Positions 7,130-64,000 of a stretch of DNA of 64,000 bases are shown one piece after another (within the stretch, counting starts at the first letter, position 1; each line of letters starts with the position of its first letter). This stretch comes from Escherichia coli (GTDB lineage Bacteria; Pseudomonadota; Gammaproteobacteria; Enterobacterales; Enterobacteriaceae), in NCBI RefSeq assembly GCF_051903065.1, contig NZ_CP178438.1, one strand, 5' to 3'. Both the position numbers and the translations under genes were made by a program. The notes beneath the pieces were generated by a model that did not search any database, was not told the origin of the DNA, and saw only the letters and a program-made list of their open reading frames with translations.

Positions 7130-8122
7130 ATGCGACATAGCGTTCTTTTTGCGACAGCGTTTGCCACGCTTATCTCTACACAAACTTTTGCTGCCGATCT
7201 GCCGGGCAAAGGCATTACTGTTAATCCAGTTCAGAGCACCATCACCGAAGAAACCTTCCAGACACTGCTGGTCAGTCGTGCGCTGGAGAAATTAGGTTAT
7301 ACCGTCACTAAACCCAGCGAAGTGGATTACAACGTTGGCTACACCTCGCTTGCTTCCGGCGATGCAACCTTCACCGCCGTGAACTGGACGCCACTGCATG
7401 ACAACATGTACGAAGCTGCCGGTGGCGATAAGAAATTTTATCGTGAAGGGGTATTTGTTAACGGCGCGGCACAGGGTTACCTGATCGATAAGAAAACCGC
7501 CGACCAGTACAAAATCACCAACATCGCACAACTGAAAGATCCGAAGATCGCCAAACTGTTCGATACCAACGGCGACGGTAAAGCGGATTTAACCGGTTGT
7601 AACCCAGGCTGGGGCTGCGAAGGTGCGATCAACCACCAGCTTGCCGCGTATGAACTGACCAACACCGTGACGCATAATCAGGGGAACTACGCAGCGATGA
7701 TGGCCGACACCATCAGTCGCTACAAAGAGGGCAAACCGGTGTTTTACTACACCTGGACGCCGTACTGGGTGAGTAATGAGCTGAAGCCAGGGAAAGATGT
7801 GGTCTGGTTGCAGGTGCCGTTCTCTGCACTGCCGGGCGATAAAAATGCCGATACCAAACTGCCGAATGGCGCGAATTACGGCTTCCCGGTCAGCACCATG
7901 CATATCGTTGCCAATAAAGCCTGGGCCGAGAAAAACCCGGCAGCAGCGAAACTGTTTGCCATTATGCAGTTGCCAGTGGCAGATATTAACGCCCAGAACG
8001 CCATTATGCATGACGGCAAAGCCTCAGAAGGCGATATTCAGGGCCACGTTGATGGCTGGATCAAAGCCCACCAGCAGCAGTTCGATGGCTGGGTGAATGA
8101 GGCGTTGGCAGCGCAGAAGTAA
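7130..8122 (+). CDS. proX: Glycine betaine/proline periplasmic binding protein
   Basis: ORF 7082..8122; start trimmed to [14 protein letters not shown] signal peptide with AAGGA RBS upstream (330 aa). Confidence 0.9.
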
Positions 8123-8130
8123 TTTTTATT

Positions 8131-8212
8131 CGGGCGGATAAGGCGTTTTCGCCGCATCCGCCGCTCTGTACACAATGCCTGATGCGACGCTGGCGCGTCT
8201 TATCATGCCTAC
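8131..8212. repeat. REP/BIME palindromic units downstream of proX
   Basis: cgggcggataaggcgttttcgccgcatccgcc and gcctgatgcgacgctggcgcgtcttatcatgcctac REP consensus palindromes. Confidence 0.8.
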
Positions 8213-8313
8213 AAACCACACCGCACATTTCAACAATCTATCTTTCATCCCATATTCATCAACATCCGCTATTATTGATTTCCAGCTTAATCATCACCTG
8301 ATGAACAAAAATA

Positions 8314-9498
8314 ATGACCAAACCTAATCATGAGCTTAGCCCGGCGCTAATCGTGCTGATGTCTATCGCCACCGGTCTGGCGGTCGCCAGCAACTATTAC
8401 GCCCAGCCATTGCTCGACACCATCGCGCGTAACTTTTCCCTTTCCGCCAGTTCGGCAGGCTTTATTGTTACCGCCGCGCAGTTGGGCTATGCCGCCGGTC
8501 TGCTGTTTCTTGTTCCTCTGGGTGACATGTTTGAACGTCGCCGCCTGATTGTCTCAATGACCTTACTGGCGGCAGGTGGCATGTTAATTACTGCCAGCAG
8601 TCAGTCGCTGGCGATGATGATCCTCGGTACGGCATTAACCGGTTTGTTCTCGGTCGTGGCACAAATTCTGGTTCCGCTGGCAGCAACGTTGGCATCACCA
8701 GACAAACGCGGCAAAGTGGTTGGCACCATTATGAGCGGTCTGCTGCTGGGGATCTTACTCGCACGGACCGTTGCCGGATTGCTGGCGAACCTCGGCGGCT
8801 GGCGCACCGTCTTTTGGGTCGCTTCGGTATTAATGGCACTGATGGCGCTGGCGTTATGGCGTGGTCTGCCACAAATGAAATCAGAAACCCACCTCAACTA
8901 CCCACAGTTGTTAGGTTCCGTTTTCAGCATGTTTATCAGCGATAAGATCCTGCGCACCCGCGCATTGCTGGGCTGCCTGACTTTTGCCAACTTCAGCATT
9001 CTCTGGACCTCGATGGCCTTTTTGCTTGCCGCTCCACCTTTTAACTACAGCGATGGCGTAATTGGTCTGTTTGGACTTGCGGGGGCTGCCGGAGCGTTGG
9101 GCGCTCGTCCGGCGGGCGGTTTTGCCGACAAGGGCAAATCGCACCACACCACAACTTTCGGTCTGCTGCTGCTGTTACTTTCATGGCTGGCAATCTGGTT
9201 TGGTCACACTTCCGTACTGGCGTTGATTATCGGCATTCTGGTGCTGGACCTCACCGTACAGGGCGTGCATATCACTAACCAGACGGTAATTTATCGAATA
9301 CATCCTGATGCGCGTAATCGCCTGACCGCAGGTTACATGACCAGCTACTTTATTGGCGGTGCCGCCGGTTCGCTAATTTCAGCCTCAGCCTGGCAACATG
9401 GCGGTTGGGCTGGCGTTTGTCTGGCTGGCGCGACGATTGCCCTGGTTAACTTACTGGTCTGGTGGCGAGGTTTTCATCGTCAGGAAGCCGCAAATTAA
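8314..9498 (+). CDS. ygaY: MFS transporter, intact
   Basis: 394 aa uninterrupted ORF with 12-TM-like hydrophobic pattern; positionally ygaY. Confidence 0.8.
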   Translation: MTKPNHELSPALIVLMSIATGLAVASNYYAQPLLDTIARNFSLSASSAGFIVTAAQLGYAAGLLFLVPLGDMFERRRLIVSMTLLAAGGMLITASSQSLAMMILGTALTGLFSVVAQILVPLAATLASPDKRGKVVGTIMSGLLLGILLARTVAGLLANLGGWRTVFWVASVLMALMALALWRGLPQMKSETHLNYPQLLGSVFSMFISDKILRTRALLGCLTFANFSILWTSMAFLLAAPPFNYSDGVIGLFGLAGAAGALGARPAGGFADKGKSHHTTTFGLLLLLLSWLAIWFGHTSVLALIIGILVLDLTVQGVHITNQTVIYRIHPDARNRLTAGYMTSYFIGGAAGSLISASAWQHGGWAGVCLAGATIALVNLLVWWRGFHRQEAAN

Positions 9499-37150: not shown

Positions 37151-37546
<396 letters not shown>

Positions 37547-37569
37547 ATGGTGTCCAAATGCAACACGTT

Positions 37570-56735: not shown

Positions 56736-58814
56736 ATGTCATATACACCGATGAGTGATCTCGGACAGCAAGGGTTGTTCGACATCACTCGGACACTATT
56801 GCAGCAGCCCGATCTGGCCTCGCTGTGTGAGGCTCTTTCGCAACTGGTAAAGCGTTCTGCGCTCGCCGACAACGCGGCTATTGTGTTGTGGCAAGCGCAG
56901 ACTCAACGTGCGTCTTATTACGCATCGCGTGAAAAAGACACCCCCATTAAATATGAAGACGAAACTGTTCTGGCACACGGTCCGGTACGCAGCATTTTGT
57001 CGCGCCCTGATACGCTGCATTGCAGTTACGAAGAATTTTGTGAAACCTGGCCGCAGCTGGCCGCAGGTGGGCTATACCCAAAATTTGGTCACTATTGCCT
57101 GATGCCACTGGCGGCGGAAGGGCATATTTTTGGTGGCTGTGAATTTATTCGTTATGACGATCGCCCCTGGAGCGAAAAAGAGTTCAATCGTCTGCAAACA
57201 TTTACGCAGATCGTTTCTGTCGTCACCGAACAAATCCAGAGTCGCGTCGTTAACAATGTCGACTATGAGTTGTTATGCCGGGAACGAGATAACTTCCGCA
57301 TCCTGGTCGCCATCACCAACGCGGTGCTTTCCCGCCTGGATATGGACGAACTGGTCAGCGAAGTCGCCAAAGAAATCCATTACTATTTCGATATTGACGA
57401 TATCAGTATCGTCTTACGCAGCCACCGTAAAAACAAACTCAACATCTACTCCACTCACTATCTTGATAAACAGCATCCCGCCCACGAACAGAGCGAAGTC
57501 GATGAAGCCGGAACCCTCACCGAACGCGTGTTCAAAAGTAAAGAGATGCTGCTGATTAATCTCCACGAGCGGGATGATTTAGCCCCCTATGAACGCATGT
57601 TGTTCGACACCTGGGGCAACCAGATTCAAACCTTGTGCCTGTTACCGCTGATGTCTGGCGACACCATGCTGGGCGTGCTGAAACTGGCGCAATGTGAAGA
57701 GAAAGTGTTTACCACTACCAATCTGAATTTACTGCGCCAGATTGCCGAACGTGTGGCAATCGCTGTCGATAACGCCCTCGCCTATCAGGAAATCCATCGT
57801 CTGAAAGAACGGCTGGTTGATGAAAACCTCGCCCTGACCGAGCAGCTCAACAATGTTGATAGTGAATTTGGCGAGATTATTGGCCGCAGCGAAGCCATGT
57901 ACAGCGTGCTTAAACAAGTTGAAATGGTGGCGCAAAGTGACAGTACCGTGCTGATCCTCGGTGAAACTGGCACGGGTAAAGAGCTGATTGCCCGTGCTAT
58001 CCATAATCTCAGTGGGCGTAATAATCGCCGCATGGTCAAAATGAACTGCGCGGCGATGCCTGCCGGATTGCTGGAGAGCGATCTGTTTGGTCATGAGCGT
58101 GGGGCTTTTACTGGTGCCAGCGCCCAGCGCATTGGTCGTTTTGAACTGGCGGATAAAAGCTCCCTGTTCCTCGACGAAGTGGGCGATATGCCACTGGAGT
58201 TACAGCCGAAGTTGCTGCGTGTATTGCAGGAACAGGAGTTTGAACGCCTCGGCAGCAACAAAATCATTCAGACGGACGTGCGTCTAATCGCCGCGACTAA
58301 CCGCGATCTGAAAAAAATGGTCGCCGACCGTGAGTTCCGTAGCGATCTCTATTACCGCCTGAACGTATTCCCGATTCACCTTCCGCCACTACGCGAGCGT
58401 CCGGAAGATATTCCGCTGCTGGCGAAAGCCTTTACCTTCAAAATTGCCCGTCGTCTGGGGCGCAATATCGACAGCATTCCTGCCGAGACGTTGCGCACCT
58501 TGAGTAATATGGAGTGGCCGGGTAACGTACGCGAACTGGAAAACGTCATTGAGCGCGCGGTATTGCTAACACGCGGCAACGTGCTGCAGCTGTCATTGCC
58601 AGATATTGCTTTACCGGAGCCTGAAACGCCGCCTGCCGCAACGGTTGTCGCCCAGGAGGGCGAAGATGAATATCAGTTGATTGTTCGCGTGCTGAAAGAA
58701 ACTAACGGCGTGGTTGCCGGGCCTAAAGGCGCTGCGCAACGTCTGGGGCTGAAACGCACGACCCTGCTGTCACGGATGAAGCGACTGGGAATTGATAAAT
58801 CGGCATTGATTTAA
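56736..58814 (+). CDS. fhlA: Formate hydrogenlyase transcriptional activator (sigma54 EBP)
   Basis: ORF 56700..58814; start MSYTPMSDLGQQ (692 aa); GAF domains, AAA+ GETGTGKE and GAFTGA, C-terminal HTH. Confidence 0.95.
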   Translation: MSYTPMSDLGQQGLFDITRTLLQQPDLASLCEALSQLVKRSALADNAAIVLWQAQTQRASYYASREKDTPIKYEDETVLAHGPVRSILSRPDTLHCSYEEFCETWPQLAAGGLYPKFGHYCLMPLAAEGHIFGGCEFIRYDDRPWSEKEFNRLQTFTQIVSVVTEQIQSRVVNNVDYELLCRERDNFRILVAITNAVLSRLDMDELVSEVAKEIHYYFDIDDISIVLRSHRKNKLNIYSTHYLDKQHPAHEQSEVDEAGTLTERVFKSKEMLLINLHERDDLAPYERMLFDTWGNQIQTLCLLPLMSGDTMLGVLKLAQCEEKVFTTTNLNLLRQIAERVAIAVDNALAYQEIHRLKERLVDENLALTEQLNNVDSEFGEIIGRSEAMYSVLKQVEMVAQSDSTVLILGETGTGKELIARAIHNLSGRNNRRMVKMNCAAMPAGLLESDLFGHERGAFTGASAQRIGRFELADKSSLFLDEVGDMPLELQPKLLRVLQEQEFERLGSNKIIQTDVRLIAATNRDLKKMVADREFRSDLYYRLNVFPIHLPPLRERPEDIPLLAKAFTFKIARRLGRNIDSIPAETLRTLSNMEWPGNVRELENVIERAVLLTRGNVLQLSLPDIALPEPETPPAATVVAQEGEDEYQLIVRVLKETNGVVAGPKGAAQRLGLKRTTLLSRMKRLGIDKSALI

Positions 58815-58858
58815 CAGATGTGGTTATACTCGATCAACATTCAATGAAAGGAGGCAGT

Positions 58859-59287
58859 ATGGCAGTTTCAGCAAGAAATCAATTAACCGGAACAGTTAGC
58901 GCAGTAGCAATGGGCGCGGTGAATGACGAAGTAGAACTGACGCTGGCAGGTGGTGCAAAGCTGGTGGCAATTGTGACTCACAGCAGCCAGCAGGCTCTGG
59001 GTCTGGCGAAAGGGAAAGAAGCGATTGCCCTGATTAAAGCCCCGTGGGTAACGCTGGCAACGGAAGACTGTGGACTGAAATTCTCTGCTCGCAACCAGTT
59101 TGCTGGCAGCGTGTCGACAATCACCGAAGGCGCAGTGAACGCCACTGTCCATATCAAAACGGATGCGGGTTTTGAAATTGTGGCAGTGGTAACAAATGAA
59201 AGTCAGGATGAAATGAAACTCACCACTGGCTCACGCGTTATTGCATTGATCAAAGCATCAGCCATCCTGATTGCCACCAAAGCGTAA
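58859..59287 (+). CDS. Stand-alone di-Mop (tandem TOBE) molybdate/tungstate-binding protein, ModG-like
   Basis: ORF 58820..59287; AAAGGAGG RBS before ATG at 58859 (142 aa); two internally repeated Mop units each beginning SARNQ(L/F)xGxV. Confidence 0.75.
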   Translation: MAVSARNQLTGTVSAVAMGAVNDEVELTLAGGAKLVAIVTHSSQQALGLAKGKEAIALIKAPWVTLATEDCGLKFSARNQFAGSVSTITEGAVNATVHIKTDAGFEIVAVVTNESQDEMKLTTGSRVIALIKASAILIATKA

Positions 59288-59296
59288 ACGCCTTAT

Positions 59297-59322
59297 TTGC
59301 CGGAGAGTATGGCTCTCCGGCA
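59297..59322. terminator. Inverted repeat / bidirectional terminator between mop and ygbA
   Basis: gccggagag-tatg-gctctccggc followed by T-rich tract. Confidence 0.6.
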
Positions 59323-59325
59323 GAT

Positions 59326-59670
59326 TTATTTCTTTGGACGATATTTTTCTGGCAACTCCGGCACCGGACGCTTGTCATCGATGAGATGACGCACGGTTAA
59401 GATCGGATGACGCCACAGCATTCTCGGCCCGGCCCAACGCATAATCTGTTTCATCTCTTCACGCTTTGCAGGCTGGTAACAGTGCACCGGACACTGCTTA
59501 CAGGCTGGTTTCTCTTCGCCGAACACACATTTATCCAGCCGCTTTTGCGCGTAAGCAAACAACGCCTCGTAATGCTCCGGCTCCGCTGACGCCTGCGGGC
59601 ATTTCGCTTGATAAAGATCGATCATTTTTTTAATCGTCAGTTTTTCACGAGAGATACGCTTGCCGGACAT
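59326..59670 (-). CDS. ygbA: Cysteine-rich small protein, positionally ygbA
   Basis: 114 aa ORF with C-x-x-C-x-x-x-C cluster, divergent from mutS; symbol assigned by position only. Confidence 0.6.
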   Translation of the reverse strand: MSGKRISREKLTIKKMIDLYQAKCPQASAEPEHYEALFAYAQKRLDKCVFGEEKPACKQCPVHCYQPAKREEMKQIMRWAGPRMLWRHPILTVRHLIDDKRPVPELPEKYRPKK

Positions 59671-59956
59671 GCTGCCTCCATCTCATTAAGATGCATTTAT
59701 ATTACAACTTAATCTTAAAGGGCACTATGACTCTAAAGAAGAAGGGTTCGCCAACCGATACAATTTTGCGTACTTGCTTCATAAGCATCACGCAAAAGCT
59801 GCAAAACAGCATCTTTCCCGGAACCAGCATCAAGAACTCGCCGTTCGCTTCTTCCCCTGAAATGATTAACTCCGGTATCATGTGCGCCTTATGTGATTAC
59901 AACGAAAATAAAAACCATCACACCCCATTTAATATCAGGGAACCGGACATAACCCC

Positions 59957-62518
59957 ATGAGTGCAATAGAAAATTTCGACGCCCATACGCCCATGATGCA
60001 GCAGTATCTCAAGCTGAAAGCCCAGCATCCCGAGATCCTGCTGTTTTACCGGATGGGTGATTTTTATGAACTGTTTTATGACGACGCAAAACGCGCGTCG
60101 CAACTGCTGGATATTTCACTGACCAAACGAGGTGCTTCAGCGGGAGAGCCGATCCCGATGGCGGGGATCCCCTACCATGCGGTGGAAAACTACCTCGCCA
60201 AACTGGTGAATCAGGGCGAGTCCGTTGCCATCTGCGAACAAATTGGCGATCCGGCGACCAGCAAAGGTCCGGTTGAGCGCAAAGTTGTGCGTATCGTTAC
60301 GCCAGGCACCATCAGCGATGAAGCCCTGTTGCAGGAGCGTCAGGACAACCTGCTGGCGGCTATCTGGCAGGACAGCAAAGGTTTCGGCTACGCGACGCTG
60401 GATATCAGTTCCGGGCGTTTTCGCCTGAGCGAACCGGCTGACCGGGAAACGATGGCGGCAGAACTGCAACGCACTAATCCTGCGGAACTGCTGTATGCAG
60501 AAGATTTTGCTGAAATGTCGTTAATTGAAGGCCGTCGCGGCCTGCGCCGTCGCCCGCTGTGGGAGTTTGAAATCGACACCGCGCGCCAGCAGTTGAATCT
60601 GCAATTTGGCACTCGCGATCTGGTCGGTTTTGGCGTCGAGAACGCGCCGCGCGGACTTTGTGCTGCCGGTTGTCTGTTGCAGTATGCGAAAGATACCCAA
60701 CGTACGACTCTGCCGCATATTCGTTCCATCACCATGGAACGTGAGCAGGACAGCATCATTATGGATGCCGCGACGCGTCGTAATCTGGAAATCACCCAGA
60801 ACCTGGCGGGTGGTGCGGAAAATACGCTGGCTTCTGTGCTCGACTGCACCGTCACGCCGATGGGCAGCCGTATGCTGAAACGCTGGCTGCATATGCCAGT
60901 GCGCGATACCCGCGTGTTGCTTGAGCGCCAGCAAACTATTGGCGCATTGCAGGATTTCACCGCCGGGCTACAGCCGGTACTGCGTCAGGTCGGCGACCTG
61001 GAACGTATTCTGGCACGTCTGGCTTTACGAACTGCTCGCCCACGCGATCTGGCCCGTATGCGCCACGCTTTCCAGCAACTGCCGGAGCTGCGTGCGCAGT
61101 TAGAAACTGTCGATAGTGCACCGGTACAGGCGCTACGTGAGAAGATGGGCGAGTTTGCCGAGCTGCGCGATCTGCTGGAGCGAGCAATCATCGACACACC
61201 GCCGGTGCTGGTACGCGACGGTGGTGTTATCGCATCGGGCTATAACGAAGAGCTGGATGAGTGGCGCGCGCTGGCTGACGGCGCGACCGATTATCTGGAG
61301 CGTCTGGAAGTCCGCGAGCGTGAACGTACCGGCCTGGACACGCTGAAAGTTGGCTTTAATGCGGTGCACGGCTACTACATTCAAATCAGCCGTGGGCAAA
61401 GCCATCTGGCACCCATCAACTACATGCGTCGCCAGACGCTGAAAAACGCCGAGCGCTACATCATTCCAGAGCTAAAAGAGTACGAAGATAAAGTTCTCAC
61501 CTCAAAAGGCAAAGCACTGGCACTGGAAAAACAGCTTTATGAAGAGTTGTTCGACCTGCTGTTGCCGCATCTGGAAGCGTTGCAACAGAGCGCGAGCGCG
61601 CTGGCGGAACTCGACGTGCTGGTGAACCTGGCGGAACGGGCCTATACCCTGAACTACACCTGCCCGACCTTTATTGATAAACCGGGCATTCGCATTACCG
61701 AAGGCCGCCATCCGGTGGTTGAACAGGTGCTGAACGAGCCATTTATCGCCAACCCGCTGAACCTGTCGCCACAGCGTCGCATGTTGATCATTACCGGTCC
61801 GAATATGGGCGGTAAAAGTACCTATATGCGCCAGACCGCACTGATTGCGCTGATGGCCTACATCGGCAGCTATGTACCGGCACAAAAAGTTGAGATTGGA
61901 CCTATCGATCGCATCTTTACCCGCGTAGGGGCAGCGGATGATCTGGCATCCGGGCGTTCAACCTTTATGGTGGAAATGACCGAAACCGCCAATATTTTAC
62001 ATAACGCCACCGAGTACAGTCTGGTACTGATGGATGAGATTGGGCGCGGAACTTCCACTTACGATGGTCTGTCGCTGGCGTGGGCGTGCGCGGAAAATCT
62101 GGCGAATAAGATTAAAGCATTGACGTTGTTTGCTACCCACTATTTCGAGCTGACCCAGTTACCGGAGAAAATGGAAGGCGTCGCCAACGTGCATCTCGAT
62201 GCACTGGAGCACGGCGACACCATTGCCTTTATGCATAGCGTGCAGAATGGCGCGGCGAGCAAAAGCTACGGCCTCGCGGTTGCAGCTCTGGCCGGCGTGC
62301 CAAAAGAGGTTATTAAGCGCGCACGGCAAAAACTGCGTGAGCTGGAAAGCATTTCGCCGAACGCCGCCGCTACGCAAGTGGATGGTACACAAATGTCTTT
62401 GCTGTCCGTACCGGAAGAAACCTCGCCTGCGGTCGAGGCACTGGAAAACCTCGATCCAGATTCACTCACCCCGCGTCAGGCGCTGGAATGGATTTATCGC
62501 CTGAAGAGTCTGGTGTAA
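59957..62518 (+). CDS. mutS: DNA mismatch repair protein MutS
   Basis: 853 aa; Walker [10 protein letters not shown], mismatch-binding N-terminal domain. Confidence 0.98.
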
Positions 62519-62523
62519 TAATA

Positions 62524-62552
62524 ATTCCCGATAGTCTTTTGCTATCGGGAAT
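62524..62552 (+). terminator. Inverted repeat after mutS (weak terminator)
   Basis: attcccgatag-tcttttg-ctatcgggaat; no strong T-run. Confidence 0.4.
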
Positions 62553-62623
62553 ATTAACGATAACTGACGAATCAAATAAAAATACCCTGTATAATAGGAA
62601 AGCTTATTTTACAGGGTAAAACC

Positions 62624-63280
62624 ATGCCATCTACACGCTATCAAAAAATCAATGCCCATCACTATCGCCATATATGGGTCGTTGGTGATATTCATGGTGA
62701 ATATCAGTTATTACAATCCCGCTTAAATCAACTCTCTTTTTTCCCCGAAACCGACTTACTTATTTCTGTCGGTGATAATATTGATCGTGGGCCGGAGAGT
62801 CTTAACGTCCTGCGCCTGCTAAACCAGCCCTGGTTTATCTCCGTTAAAGGCAACCACGAAGCAATGGCGCTGGATGCGTTCGCGACCGGCGATGGCAATA
62901 TGTGGCGTGCCAGCGGTGGTGACTGGTTTTTCGATTTAAATGATTCAGAGCAACAAGAGGCAATAGATCTGTTGCTGAAATTCCATCACCTTCCACATAT
63001 TATTGAAATCACTAACGACAACATAAAATATGTCATCGCACATGCAGATTATCCGGGGAGTGAATATCTCTTTGGTAAAGAAATAGCGGAGAGCGAATTA
63101 CTCTGGCCTGTTGATCGTGTGCAGAAATCACTTAATGGCGAGTTACAACAAATAAACGGCGCTGATTATTTTATATTTGGACATATGATGTTTGATAACA
63201 TTCAGACGTTCGCTAACCAGATTTATATTGATACCGGATCGCCGAAAAGCGGGCGGCTGTCATTTTATAAAATAAAGTAA
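62624..63280 (+). CDS. pphB: Serine/threonine protein phosphatase 2 (PPP family)
   Basis: 218 aa; metallophosphatase motifs GDIHG, GDNIDRG, GNHE; AT-rich codon usage. Confidence 0.9.
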   Translation: MPSTRYQKINAHHYRHIWVVGDIHGEYQLLQSRLNQLSFFPETDLLISVGDNIDRGPESLNVLRLLNQPWFISVKGNHEAMALDAFATGDGNMWRASGGDWFFDLNDSEQQEAIDLLLKFHHLPHIIEITNDNIKYVIAHADYPGSEYLFGKEIAESELLWPVDRVQKSLNGELQQINGADYFIFGHMMFDNIQTFANQIYIDTGSPKSGRLSFYKIK

Positions 63281-63284
63281 TGAG

Positions 63285-63320
63285 GCCGGGTAAAGCAAAG
63301 CCACTACCCGGCACTTTTTA
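63285..63320 (+). terminator. Terminator hairpin after pphB
   Basis: gccgggta...tacccggc stem followed by acttttta. Confidence 0.6.
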
Positions 63321-63557
63321 TTAGCGCTTACCTTCCGCCAGCAGCGGCGGGATGCTCGGCACCATTGGCGCGTCATCAATATCTTTCTGCGTCATGCGGA
63401 ACGCTTCGGGATAATGTTCGCGGCTGGTACGGCGCAGCGGTTCGGTATCGCGCCAGGTATAAAGGCAATGCTGGCACTGATATACCGTCCAGACATCTTT
63501 CACCGGCGATTTCGCCATCACTTCAATCTGTTCATCGGCACAACGTGGACAAATCAT
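63321..63557 (-). CDS. Hydroxyarylic acid decarboxylase small subunit D (zinc-ribbon)
   Basis: 78 aa; CPRC...CQHC zinc ribbon; resembles the small D subunit of non-oxidative phenolic acid decarboxylases (EcdD/BsdD/VdcD type). Confidence 0.7.
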   Translation of the reverse strand: MICPRCADEQIEVMAKSPVKDVWTVYQCQHCLYTWRDTEPLRRTSREHYPEAFRMTQKDIDDAPMVPSIPPLLAEGKR

Positions 63558-63567
63558 CTTGTTCTCC

Positions 63568-64000
63568 TTATTTACGTGCAGCCAGCATAGCGGTCAGTTT
63601 TTCAGCCCAGGCTTTGGTTTCCGGCAAATCCACCACCGGCTGGCTGTAGTGACCACGGTTGTCCGGGGCGACAGGCGTGGTGGCGTCGATAATCAGCTTG
63701 TCGGTGATCCCCGCCGGGCTTGAGCCAGGGTCGAGTTCCAGCACGGACATATTCGGCAACTGCACCAAATCCCCTGCCGGATTTACTTTCGAGGAGAGCG
63801 CCCACATCACCTGCGGCAGGTTGAACGGGTCAACGTCTTCATCGACCATAATCACCATCTTTACGTAGCCCAGACCGTGCGGCGTGGTCATCGCACGCAG
63901 GCCCACCGCGCGGGCAAAGCCGCCGTAGCGTTTTTTGGTGGAGATAATCGCCAGCAGGCCGTGGGTGTACATGGCGTTTACCGCCTGCACTTCCGGGAAC
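63568..64000 (-). CDS. UbiD-family decarboxylase subunit C, C-terminal portion (partial; N-terminus beyond window end)
   Basis: Minus-strand ORF running off the window edge; the listed Met is internal; UbiD-like C-terminal domain immediately upstream of the D subunit. Confidence 0.65.
   Translation of the reverse strand, partial: FPEVQAVNAMYTHGLLAIISTKKRYGGFARAVGLRAMTTPHGLGYVKMVIMVDEDVDPFNLPQVMWALSSKVNPAGDLVQLPNMSVLELDPGSSPAGITDKLIIDATTPVAPDNRGHYSQPVVDLPETKAWAEKLTAMLAARK

Follow-up and report, generated by a model that had tools for sequence, protein, structure and literature searches.

A segment of an Escherichia coli genome very probably ends within a hosA-regulated hydroxyarylic acid decarboxylase operon between pphB and rpoS

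What lies beyond pphB in an E. coli strain whose mutS–rpoS interval differs from that of K-12, and do the genes found there form a complete system? The question was raised by a stretch of 64,000 nucleotides from contig NZ_CP178438.1 (hereafter the window, meaning the entire stretch at its full length), which breaks off inside a gene shortly after pphB. An earlier note, made from the letters of this DNA alone, had described the mutS–rpoS interval as polymorphic; it has been published as such (PMC4209514), and the polymorphism has already been typed in hundreds of strains. We conclude with high confidence that the window ends inside a hosA-regulated B-C-D operon for a reversible non-oxidative hydroxyarylic acid decarboxylase of the 4-hydroxybenzoate/vanillate type, placed between pphB and rpoS in the pattern I allele of the interval.

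When the open reading frame (ORF) layout was recomputed, the coordinates and the ORF description of the earlier note were reproduced exactly (Table 1). The left-hand neighbour of the decarboxylase genes, which is named pphB in identical genomes too, is convergent with them, and the gene for subunit D lies on the opposite strand 40 nt beyond the pphB stop codon. The ORF for subunit C has its stop codon at 63568–63570 (minus strand) and continues without another stop up to base 64000, which places 143 codons inside the window. Its stop codon is separated from the start codon of D by 10 nt that include a GGAG ribosome-binding site (...CGT AAA TAA GGAGAACAAG ATG...). Antisense ORFs on the plus strand across 63365–63868 were treated as spurious because the minus-strand frames hold strong family matches, and an Rfam scan of positions 59000–64000 detected no RNA family. 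Over its last 1.5 kb the window is 100% identical to at least seven complete E. coli genomes among the matches listed, and in these the two genes are annotated as subunits D and C.

Table 1. Positions of the features at the right-hand end of the window.
Feature	Position	Strand	Basis
mutS	59957–62518	+	ORF layout
pphB (protein-serine/threonine phosphatase 2)	62624–63280	+	218-aa ORF; NF007425, 469.5 bits (cutoff 332)
Hairpin GGCCGGGTA...TACCCGGC followed by T-run	63284–63312, T-run to ~63320		Folding
Subunit D gene (VdcD/YclD/KpdD type)	63321–63557	−	78-aa ORF; NF041205
GGAG ribosome-binding site of D	63564–63567	−	Read from sequence
Subunit C gene, 3′ part	63568–64000	−	Codons 333–475 of 475 plus stop; NF041204

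The 78-aa protein had been proposed to be the D subunit of a non-oxidative hydroxyarylic acid decarboxylase, and this assignment was borne out by NCBIfam and PDB, on which it rests, rather than by Pfam. The protein matches the VdcD equivalog model NF041205 over positions 1–70 of 70 (E = 1.2e-35; 121.2 bits against a cutoff of 30), indicating that the ORF is not a chance one, and its residues 1–72 align with chain a of PDB 7AE4, the crystallized ShdD/VdcD protein (E = 3.4e-11). A Pfam scan of the protein found no dedicated family; the sole match at E ≤ 0.001 was a weak one to DUF1062 (E = 7e-4), and generic zinc-ribbon models were far weaker again (E ≥ 0.1). The architecture is that of the small D subunits (~70–80 aa) of the VdcBCD/BsdBCD/KpdBCD type, with two CxxC zinc knuckles and a proline-containing tail at the C-terminus (...APMVPSIPPLL...). 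The knuckle cysteines of the zinc ribbon, Cys3/Cys6 and Cys28/Cys31, occupy the same positions as the Zn ligands of ShVdcD (C3, C6, C28 and C31; PMC8379154). Among the ShVdcD residues that form salt bridges with the C subunit, R36 and E39 are kept in the alignment to 7AE4, but the E. coli protein has Glu in place of R12, so that details of the interface differ.

The partial ORF likewise proved to be the C-terminal part of a UbiD-family C subunit. The fragment, which is free of frameshifts and stops, matches the VdcC model NF041204 at positions 330–466 of 467 (231.4 bits) and the UbiD-family model TIGR00148, and alignment to ShVdcC places it on the C-terminal side of the hinge, located here at approximately residues 321–322 and in ShVdcC at T325/S326 (PMC8379154). 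In the terms of that study the window holds the oligomerization domain and the C-terminal helix, amounting to ~30% of C, and the prFMN-binding domain with the catalytic residues falls outside it. The same 143 residues form the C-terminus of a 475-aa protein in strains PS10-3, O157:H7 and 23CRST027. In the last of these, full-length C reaches 787.8 bits with NF041204 (cutoff 650) and aligns over residues 3–471 with ShVdcC (7ae4_A; 535.9 bits). It retains the motifs NVGIYR (161–166) and EGPFGEF (269–275), aligned with the segments of ShVdcC that bear the catalytic Arg and E273/E278, and thus has the Arg/Glu/Glu motifs in addition to passing the VdcC model. Against the equivalog model of UbiD proper, NF008175, it scored 174.6 bits where the cutoff is 788, and as judged from sequence it is a paralogue only. 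The earlier note had suggested a comparison with EcdBCD/VdcBCD; EcdBCD, however, is the name of the Enterobacter cloacae proteins (PMC5779730). Publications refer to the E. coli genes as pad1/yclC or treat them as homologues of kpdBCD, and call the regulator hosA/slyA (PMC4209514, PMC5491219).

Subunit B, the catalytic domain of C, the operator and hosA were read not from the window but from the public genome of E. coli 23CRST027 (NZ_AP045789.1), whose source is human faeces from Ecuador. This genome matches the window at 100% identity over the last 20 kb, with zero mismatches across 57861–64000, and at 99.994% over the first 50 kb (one mismatch and two gaps); because identity is complete over the last 20 kb only, the two need not be the same isolate. 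Downstream extension, which had been recommended as a check, revealed in this genome the order pphB, D, C (475 aa), a UbiX-like B (197 aa), a 146-nt intergenic region, a divergent 135-aa MarR-family gene and rpoS. B, whose gene belongs to this operon but lies beyond the window, is a flavin prenyltransferase of the UbiX type: it scored 312.2 bits with NF041206 (cutoff 290) and 432 bits with PDB 1SBZ, aligning over residues 1–197 of the 197-residue chain, and it is also above the cutoffs of the generic UbiX models NF004685 (257 bits) and TIGR00421 (246 bits). The 1SBZ chain is Pad1 of E. coli O157:H7. In the annotation of three loci (L001, L002 and L006) the order on one strand is B-C-D with tight coupling. 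The stop codon of B overlaps the start codon of C (TAATG), and this overlap together with the 10-nt gap between C and D indicates a translationally coupled operon.

In the 23CRST027 locus extract (L006) the divergent MarR-family gene occupies positions 7875–8282, and a 14-bp perfect palindrome, GTTCGTATACGAAC, is located at 7746–7759, 20 nt short of the start codon of B on its upstream side. Together with the bases flanking it, this palindrome, which like the gene is outside the window, matches the HosA probe oligonucleotides in the supplement of PMC6261655, where an electrophoretic mobility shift assay showed that HosA leaves its operator when 4-hydroxybenzoate is added. As summarized in the same paper, Roy & Ranjan (2016) found that HosA of E. 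coli UMN026 represses the non-oxidative hydroxyarylic acid decarboxylase operon and that 4-hydroxybenzoate releases it. The MarR-family gene at this locus has been named hosA, slyA or kpdR (PMC5491219, PMC4209514), and HosA with its operator is already characterized and in use in biosensors. Between hosA and the rpoS terminator, at ~8290–8330 of the extract, a REP-like palindromic element (GCCGGGTAGGACGCTGACGTGTCTTATCCAGGC) sits on the right-hand border of the decarboxylase segment; it differs in sequence between window-type and O104:H4 genomes.

Because the 5′ two-thirds of C are not visible in the window, the D gene and the C fragment might be read as a decaying remnant, left without functional partners by rearrangements in the mutS–rpoS hotspot. 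The region is indeed known for gene loss, the module is missing from ~3000 of 5426 genomes, and in at least one genome (UTME-1) the match to the probe is confined to its final 161 bases, which lie in C. However, 23CRST027, with zero mismatches to the window across the relevant positions, has an intact C, B and hosA, all above curated cutoffs, and the part of C and D within the window is undamaged. The exact D and C proteins are each found on at least 1000 contigs, and the D and C-terminal protein sequences recur unchanged in O157:H7 and PS10-3 despite differences in the DNA around them (111 mismatches over 13.5 kb in PS10-3). The earlier note had itself stated that a truncated UbiD-like gene without partner genes would overturn its interpretation; examined in 23CRST027, the gene is full length and accompanied by its partners. 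Decay is thereby refuted for this matching public genome, and as an account of the locus we find it scarcely credible.

If the operon is intact, its products would be expected to act together, by analogy with characterized homologues. B would prenylate FMN to give prFMN; C would use covalent prFMN catalysis to remove CO2 from para-hydroxy aromatic acids, producing phenol or guaiacol; and D, predicted to associate 1:1 with C and to be needed for activity, would steady the loops bearing the catalytic Glu-Arg-Glu. Transcription would proceed from the promoter/operator beside the divergent hosA, with HosA occupying the 14-bp palindrome ~20 nt upstream of the B start codon until freed by 4-hydroxybenzoate. 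Reversible, oxygen-sensitive decarboxylation of 4-hydroxybenzoate/vanillate by C, D and prFMN has been described for the Sh and Bs enzymes (PMC8379154). There, VdcC without VdcD was inactive, making VdcD an obligatory structural and allosteric subunit; VdcCD was oxygen-sensitive and accepted 4-hydroxybenzoate and vanillate; and UbiD enzymes are reversible (PMC8379154). The K. pneumoniae kpdBCD genes, in E. coli lysate, converted 4-hydroxybenzoate to phenol (Lupa 2005, as reported in PMC6424909). Co-expression of a D subunit with the protocatechuate decarboxylase AroY in engineered strains had a negligible or even negative effect (PMC5779730); the requirement for D is therefore specific to the cognate C.

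The cluster of proteins at 90% identity to which C belongs includes members from Enterobacter, Cronobacter and Salmonella, and that of D has members from Shigella dysenteriae and Salmonella and a partial sequence from Klebsiella; these shared clusters support orthology with the enterobacterial 4-hydroxybenzoate decarboxylases. The likely substrate range was carried over from the Klebsiella/Enterobacter, Bacillus and Sedimentibacter enzymes, and by the same analogy the E. coli complex would be oxygen-sensitive and would assemble as a C6D6 hexamer. Its physiological role, to go by the characterized homologues, may be to detoxify or convert dietary and plant phenolic acids in the gut. An enzymatic assay of the E. 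coli CD complex was not found in the searchable literature.

An intact module could also have another main role, either with Pad1 (B) making prFMN alongside UbiX as a reserve for ubiquinone synthesis, or with C and D carboxylating their substrate or acting on a protocatechuate- or gallate-like acid. Such a role would fit the scores of B above the generic UbiX family cutoffs, the ability of related B subunits to boost other UbiD enzymes such as AroY (PMC5779730) and the reversibility of UbiD enzymes (PMC8379154), and literature searches returned no direct in vivo phenotype in E. coli. However, 4-hydroxybenzoate is the specific signal of the adjacent regulator, and C is at least ~90% identical to proteins of the enterobacterial 4-hydroxybenzoate decarboxylase group, with which it shares its 90% cluster. 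The curated VdcC and VdcD models are both the best and the passing matches, whereas the model of UbiD proper falls well short of its cutoff, and the operon is dispensable, being absent from K-12 and from over half of the genomes. A different main role for the intact genes therefore seems very unlikely.

Decarboxylase DNA was present in 2415 of 5426 complete E. coli genomes and absent from ~3000. In K-12 MG1655 the order is pphB-ygbIJKLMN-rpoS and the decarboxylase is not present, and E. coli O104:H4 has both clusters (pphB-ygbI..N-D-C-B-hosA-rpoS). The statement of the earlier note that K-12 carries ygbI–ygbN at this place was thus accurate, but the idea that it does so instead of the decarboxylase holds for K-12 and not in general: both clusters, with a ygbN–D junction, occur in 1602 genomes, and the decarboxylase without ygbI–N, with the pphB–D junction of the window, in 806. 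These counts offer a modest refinement, in that the two clusters are not alternatives and their combination is twice as common as the decarboxylase alone. The layouts counted correspond to the published patterns I (EDL933), IV (E2348/69) and II/III (K-12/B2), pattern I being diagnosed by a mutS–yclC amplicon as in EDL933 (PMC4209514); the same arrangement is also given in PMC5491219. With its remainder taken from the matching genomes, the layout of the window (pphB, then D-C-B-hosA-rpoS, and o454/ygbN-negative) is the published pattern I of EDL933 type, in agreement with the proposal that the allele belongs to decarboxylase-carrying lineages and marks the strain as other than K-12. This EDL933-like, ygbN-negative allele has served as a phylogenetic and pathotype marker.

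The junction between pphB and D contains a hairpin that occurs once in the window. Direct folding gave −19.6 kcal/mol on the plus strand (z = −3.85) and −18.4 on the minus strand (z = −3.19). It is likely to be the pphB terminator and may also stop the convergent D transcript. A consensus terminator scan did not report the hairpin, most likely because 12 nt separate its two 8-nt arms, more than the loops of 3–8 nt that were covered. The ~35-nt stretch that contains it is private to the pphB–D layout: it is missing at the pphB–ygbI and ygbN–D junctions of K-12 and O104:H4, and it is kept in O157:H7 and in a lineage that is 96.4% identical over 63300–64000 of the window. Neither layout can therefore be a simple deletion derivative of the other. 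The right-hand boundary common to all layouts is the rpoS terminator, which in K-12 is directly adjoined by the ygbN terminator, showing that the module is cleanly absent there. An exact-pattern scan for the hairpin in one genome per species, which diverged copies would escape, gave a single match, in contig DXKH01000072.1 of a metagenome-assembled genome labelled Citrobacter sp. This contig (5967 bp; L008) is 94.6% identical over its whole length to E. coli mutS-pphB-D-C-B-hosA-rpoS, in the same layout, and is probably Escherichia-derived or mis-binned. The match hints that the pphB–D layout is old and is too little to decide which layout is ancestral.

A fuller history may be sketched, which we consider possible but doubtful. 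The pphB–D arrangement might be near the ancestral Escherichia layout, with the 6.1-kb ygbI–ygbN tetronate cluster inserted later at the pphB terminator and the decarboxylase lost independently in K-12-type and B2 lineages, and carriers (~45% of E. coli) might be producers of phenol from 4-hydroxybenzoate in the anaerobic gut. In line with an ancestral pphB–D junction are the private hairpin, the 94.6%-identical contig with the same layout, and the state of K-12, where the module looks as if it had been cleanly excised from between the terminators of ygbN and rpoS. If carriers do make phenol in the anaerobic gut, this would have a bearing on uraemic-toxin precursors.

Several other features of the window were recorded. 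Between emrB and luxS (14417–16233, plus strand) there are two overlapping genes, one for a 235-aa ‘RNA ligase family protein’ and one for a protein of 370 aa that has an HD(IG) domain at its N-terminus and, at its C-terminus, a P-loop region similar to the kinase portion of bacterial Pnkp (TIGR04075, 34 bits). Together they look like an RNA heal-and-seal repair pair, which gave no match to a PADLOC defence system. Of the 5426 complete E. coli genomes, ~1000 have the pair, ST131 among them. O157:H7 TR01 matches just the luxS-proximal 41 bases of this stretch and thus is without the pair, and K-12 presumably has no gene at its position. Between norW and hypF, direct repeats with a period of ~100 nt, whose copies are 88–91% identical, were seen as self-matches in the intergenic region at 37155–37558, and self-matches at 19712–20480 correspond to the expected tRNA-Arg array argQZYV-serV.

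Between fhlA and ygbA (58859–59287, plus strand) the window encodes a 142-aa di-Mop/TOBE molybdenum-pterin-binding protein (TIGR00638, 142 bits). This gene is missing from K-12, O157:H7 and O104:H4 and is the CFT073 ‘c3292’ of PMC4209514. In that study an enlarged fhlA–mutS amplicon is reported in pattern III (B2) strains only, although that paper's own Table 1 gives a c3292–mutS amplicon for the pattern IV strain E2348/69 too (PMC4209514); the window combines a c3292-like gene with the pattern I layout of mutS–rpoS. PS10-3 is identical to the window over the last 1.5 kb and has 111 differences in the last 13.5 kb, a pattern that indicates mosaic relatedness around mutS.

The system as a whole has already been described: its genes are named in RefSeq, there is a crystal structure of B from O157:H7, and the regulator and operator are characterized. 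The significance of the present assignment beyond correct annotation is accordingly small. What was established here is which genes are present and that they are complete, how they are ordered and coupled, that the zinc ligands and catalytic motifs are conserved, that the operator is present, and how the layouts are distributed. The predicted phenotype is that the window strain, unlike K-12, should turn 4-hydroxybenzoate, and probably vanillate, into phenol (or guaiacol) anaerobically under the control of HosA.

Among known systems, the closest is the ‘2.9-kb segment’ of the mutS–rpoS interval in O157:H7 and EPEC (hosA/slyA-pad1-yclC with the small D gene), which has the same genes in the same order and orientation with the same flanks, from pphB through D-C-B and hosA to rpoS. 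In O157:H7 PV15-279, neither D nor the final 143 residues of C differ from the window, and the DNA is 99.3% identical. The module itself shows no difference between O157:H7 and the window strain, which adds the c3292-like di-Mop/TOBE gene between fhlA and ygbA. The VdcCD enzymes of Sedimentibacter hydroxybenzoicus and Bacillus subtilis (ShdCD and BsdCD; PDB 7AE4, 7AE5 and 7AE7) share with the E. coli system the whole-length alignment of C, the positions of the Zn ligands, the proline-containing tail of D and the logic of a B-C-D operon, and they are the source of the mechanistic proposals made here of an obligatory allosteric D, prFMN and oxygen sensitivity (PMC8379154). They differ in that D is 68 aa in ShVdcD and 78 aa in E. 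coli, with a 6-residue insertion after the zinc ribbon, and in that the E. coli operon resides in a Gram-negative facultative anaerobe and is regulated by a divergent MarR-type HosA. The 4-hydroxybenzoate decarboxylases KpdBCD of K. pneumoniae and EcdBCD of Enterobacter cloacae are enterobacterial orthologues, as judged by the 90%-identity clusters. Finally, UbiD and UbiX of E. coli belong to the same superfamilies and share the prFMN chemistry, C scoring 163 bits against the UbiD structures 2IDB/5M1C; UbiD, however, works without a D subunit, and its substrate is polyprenylated.
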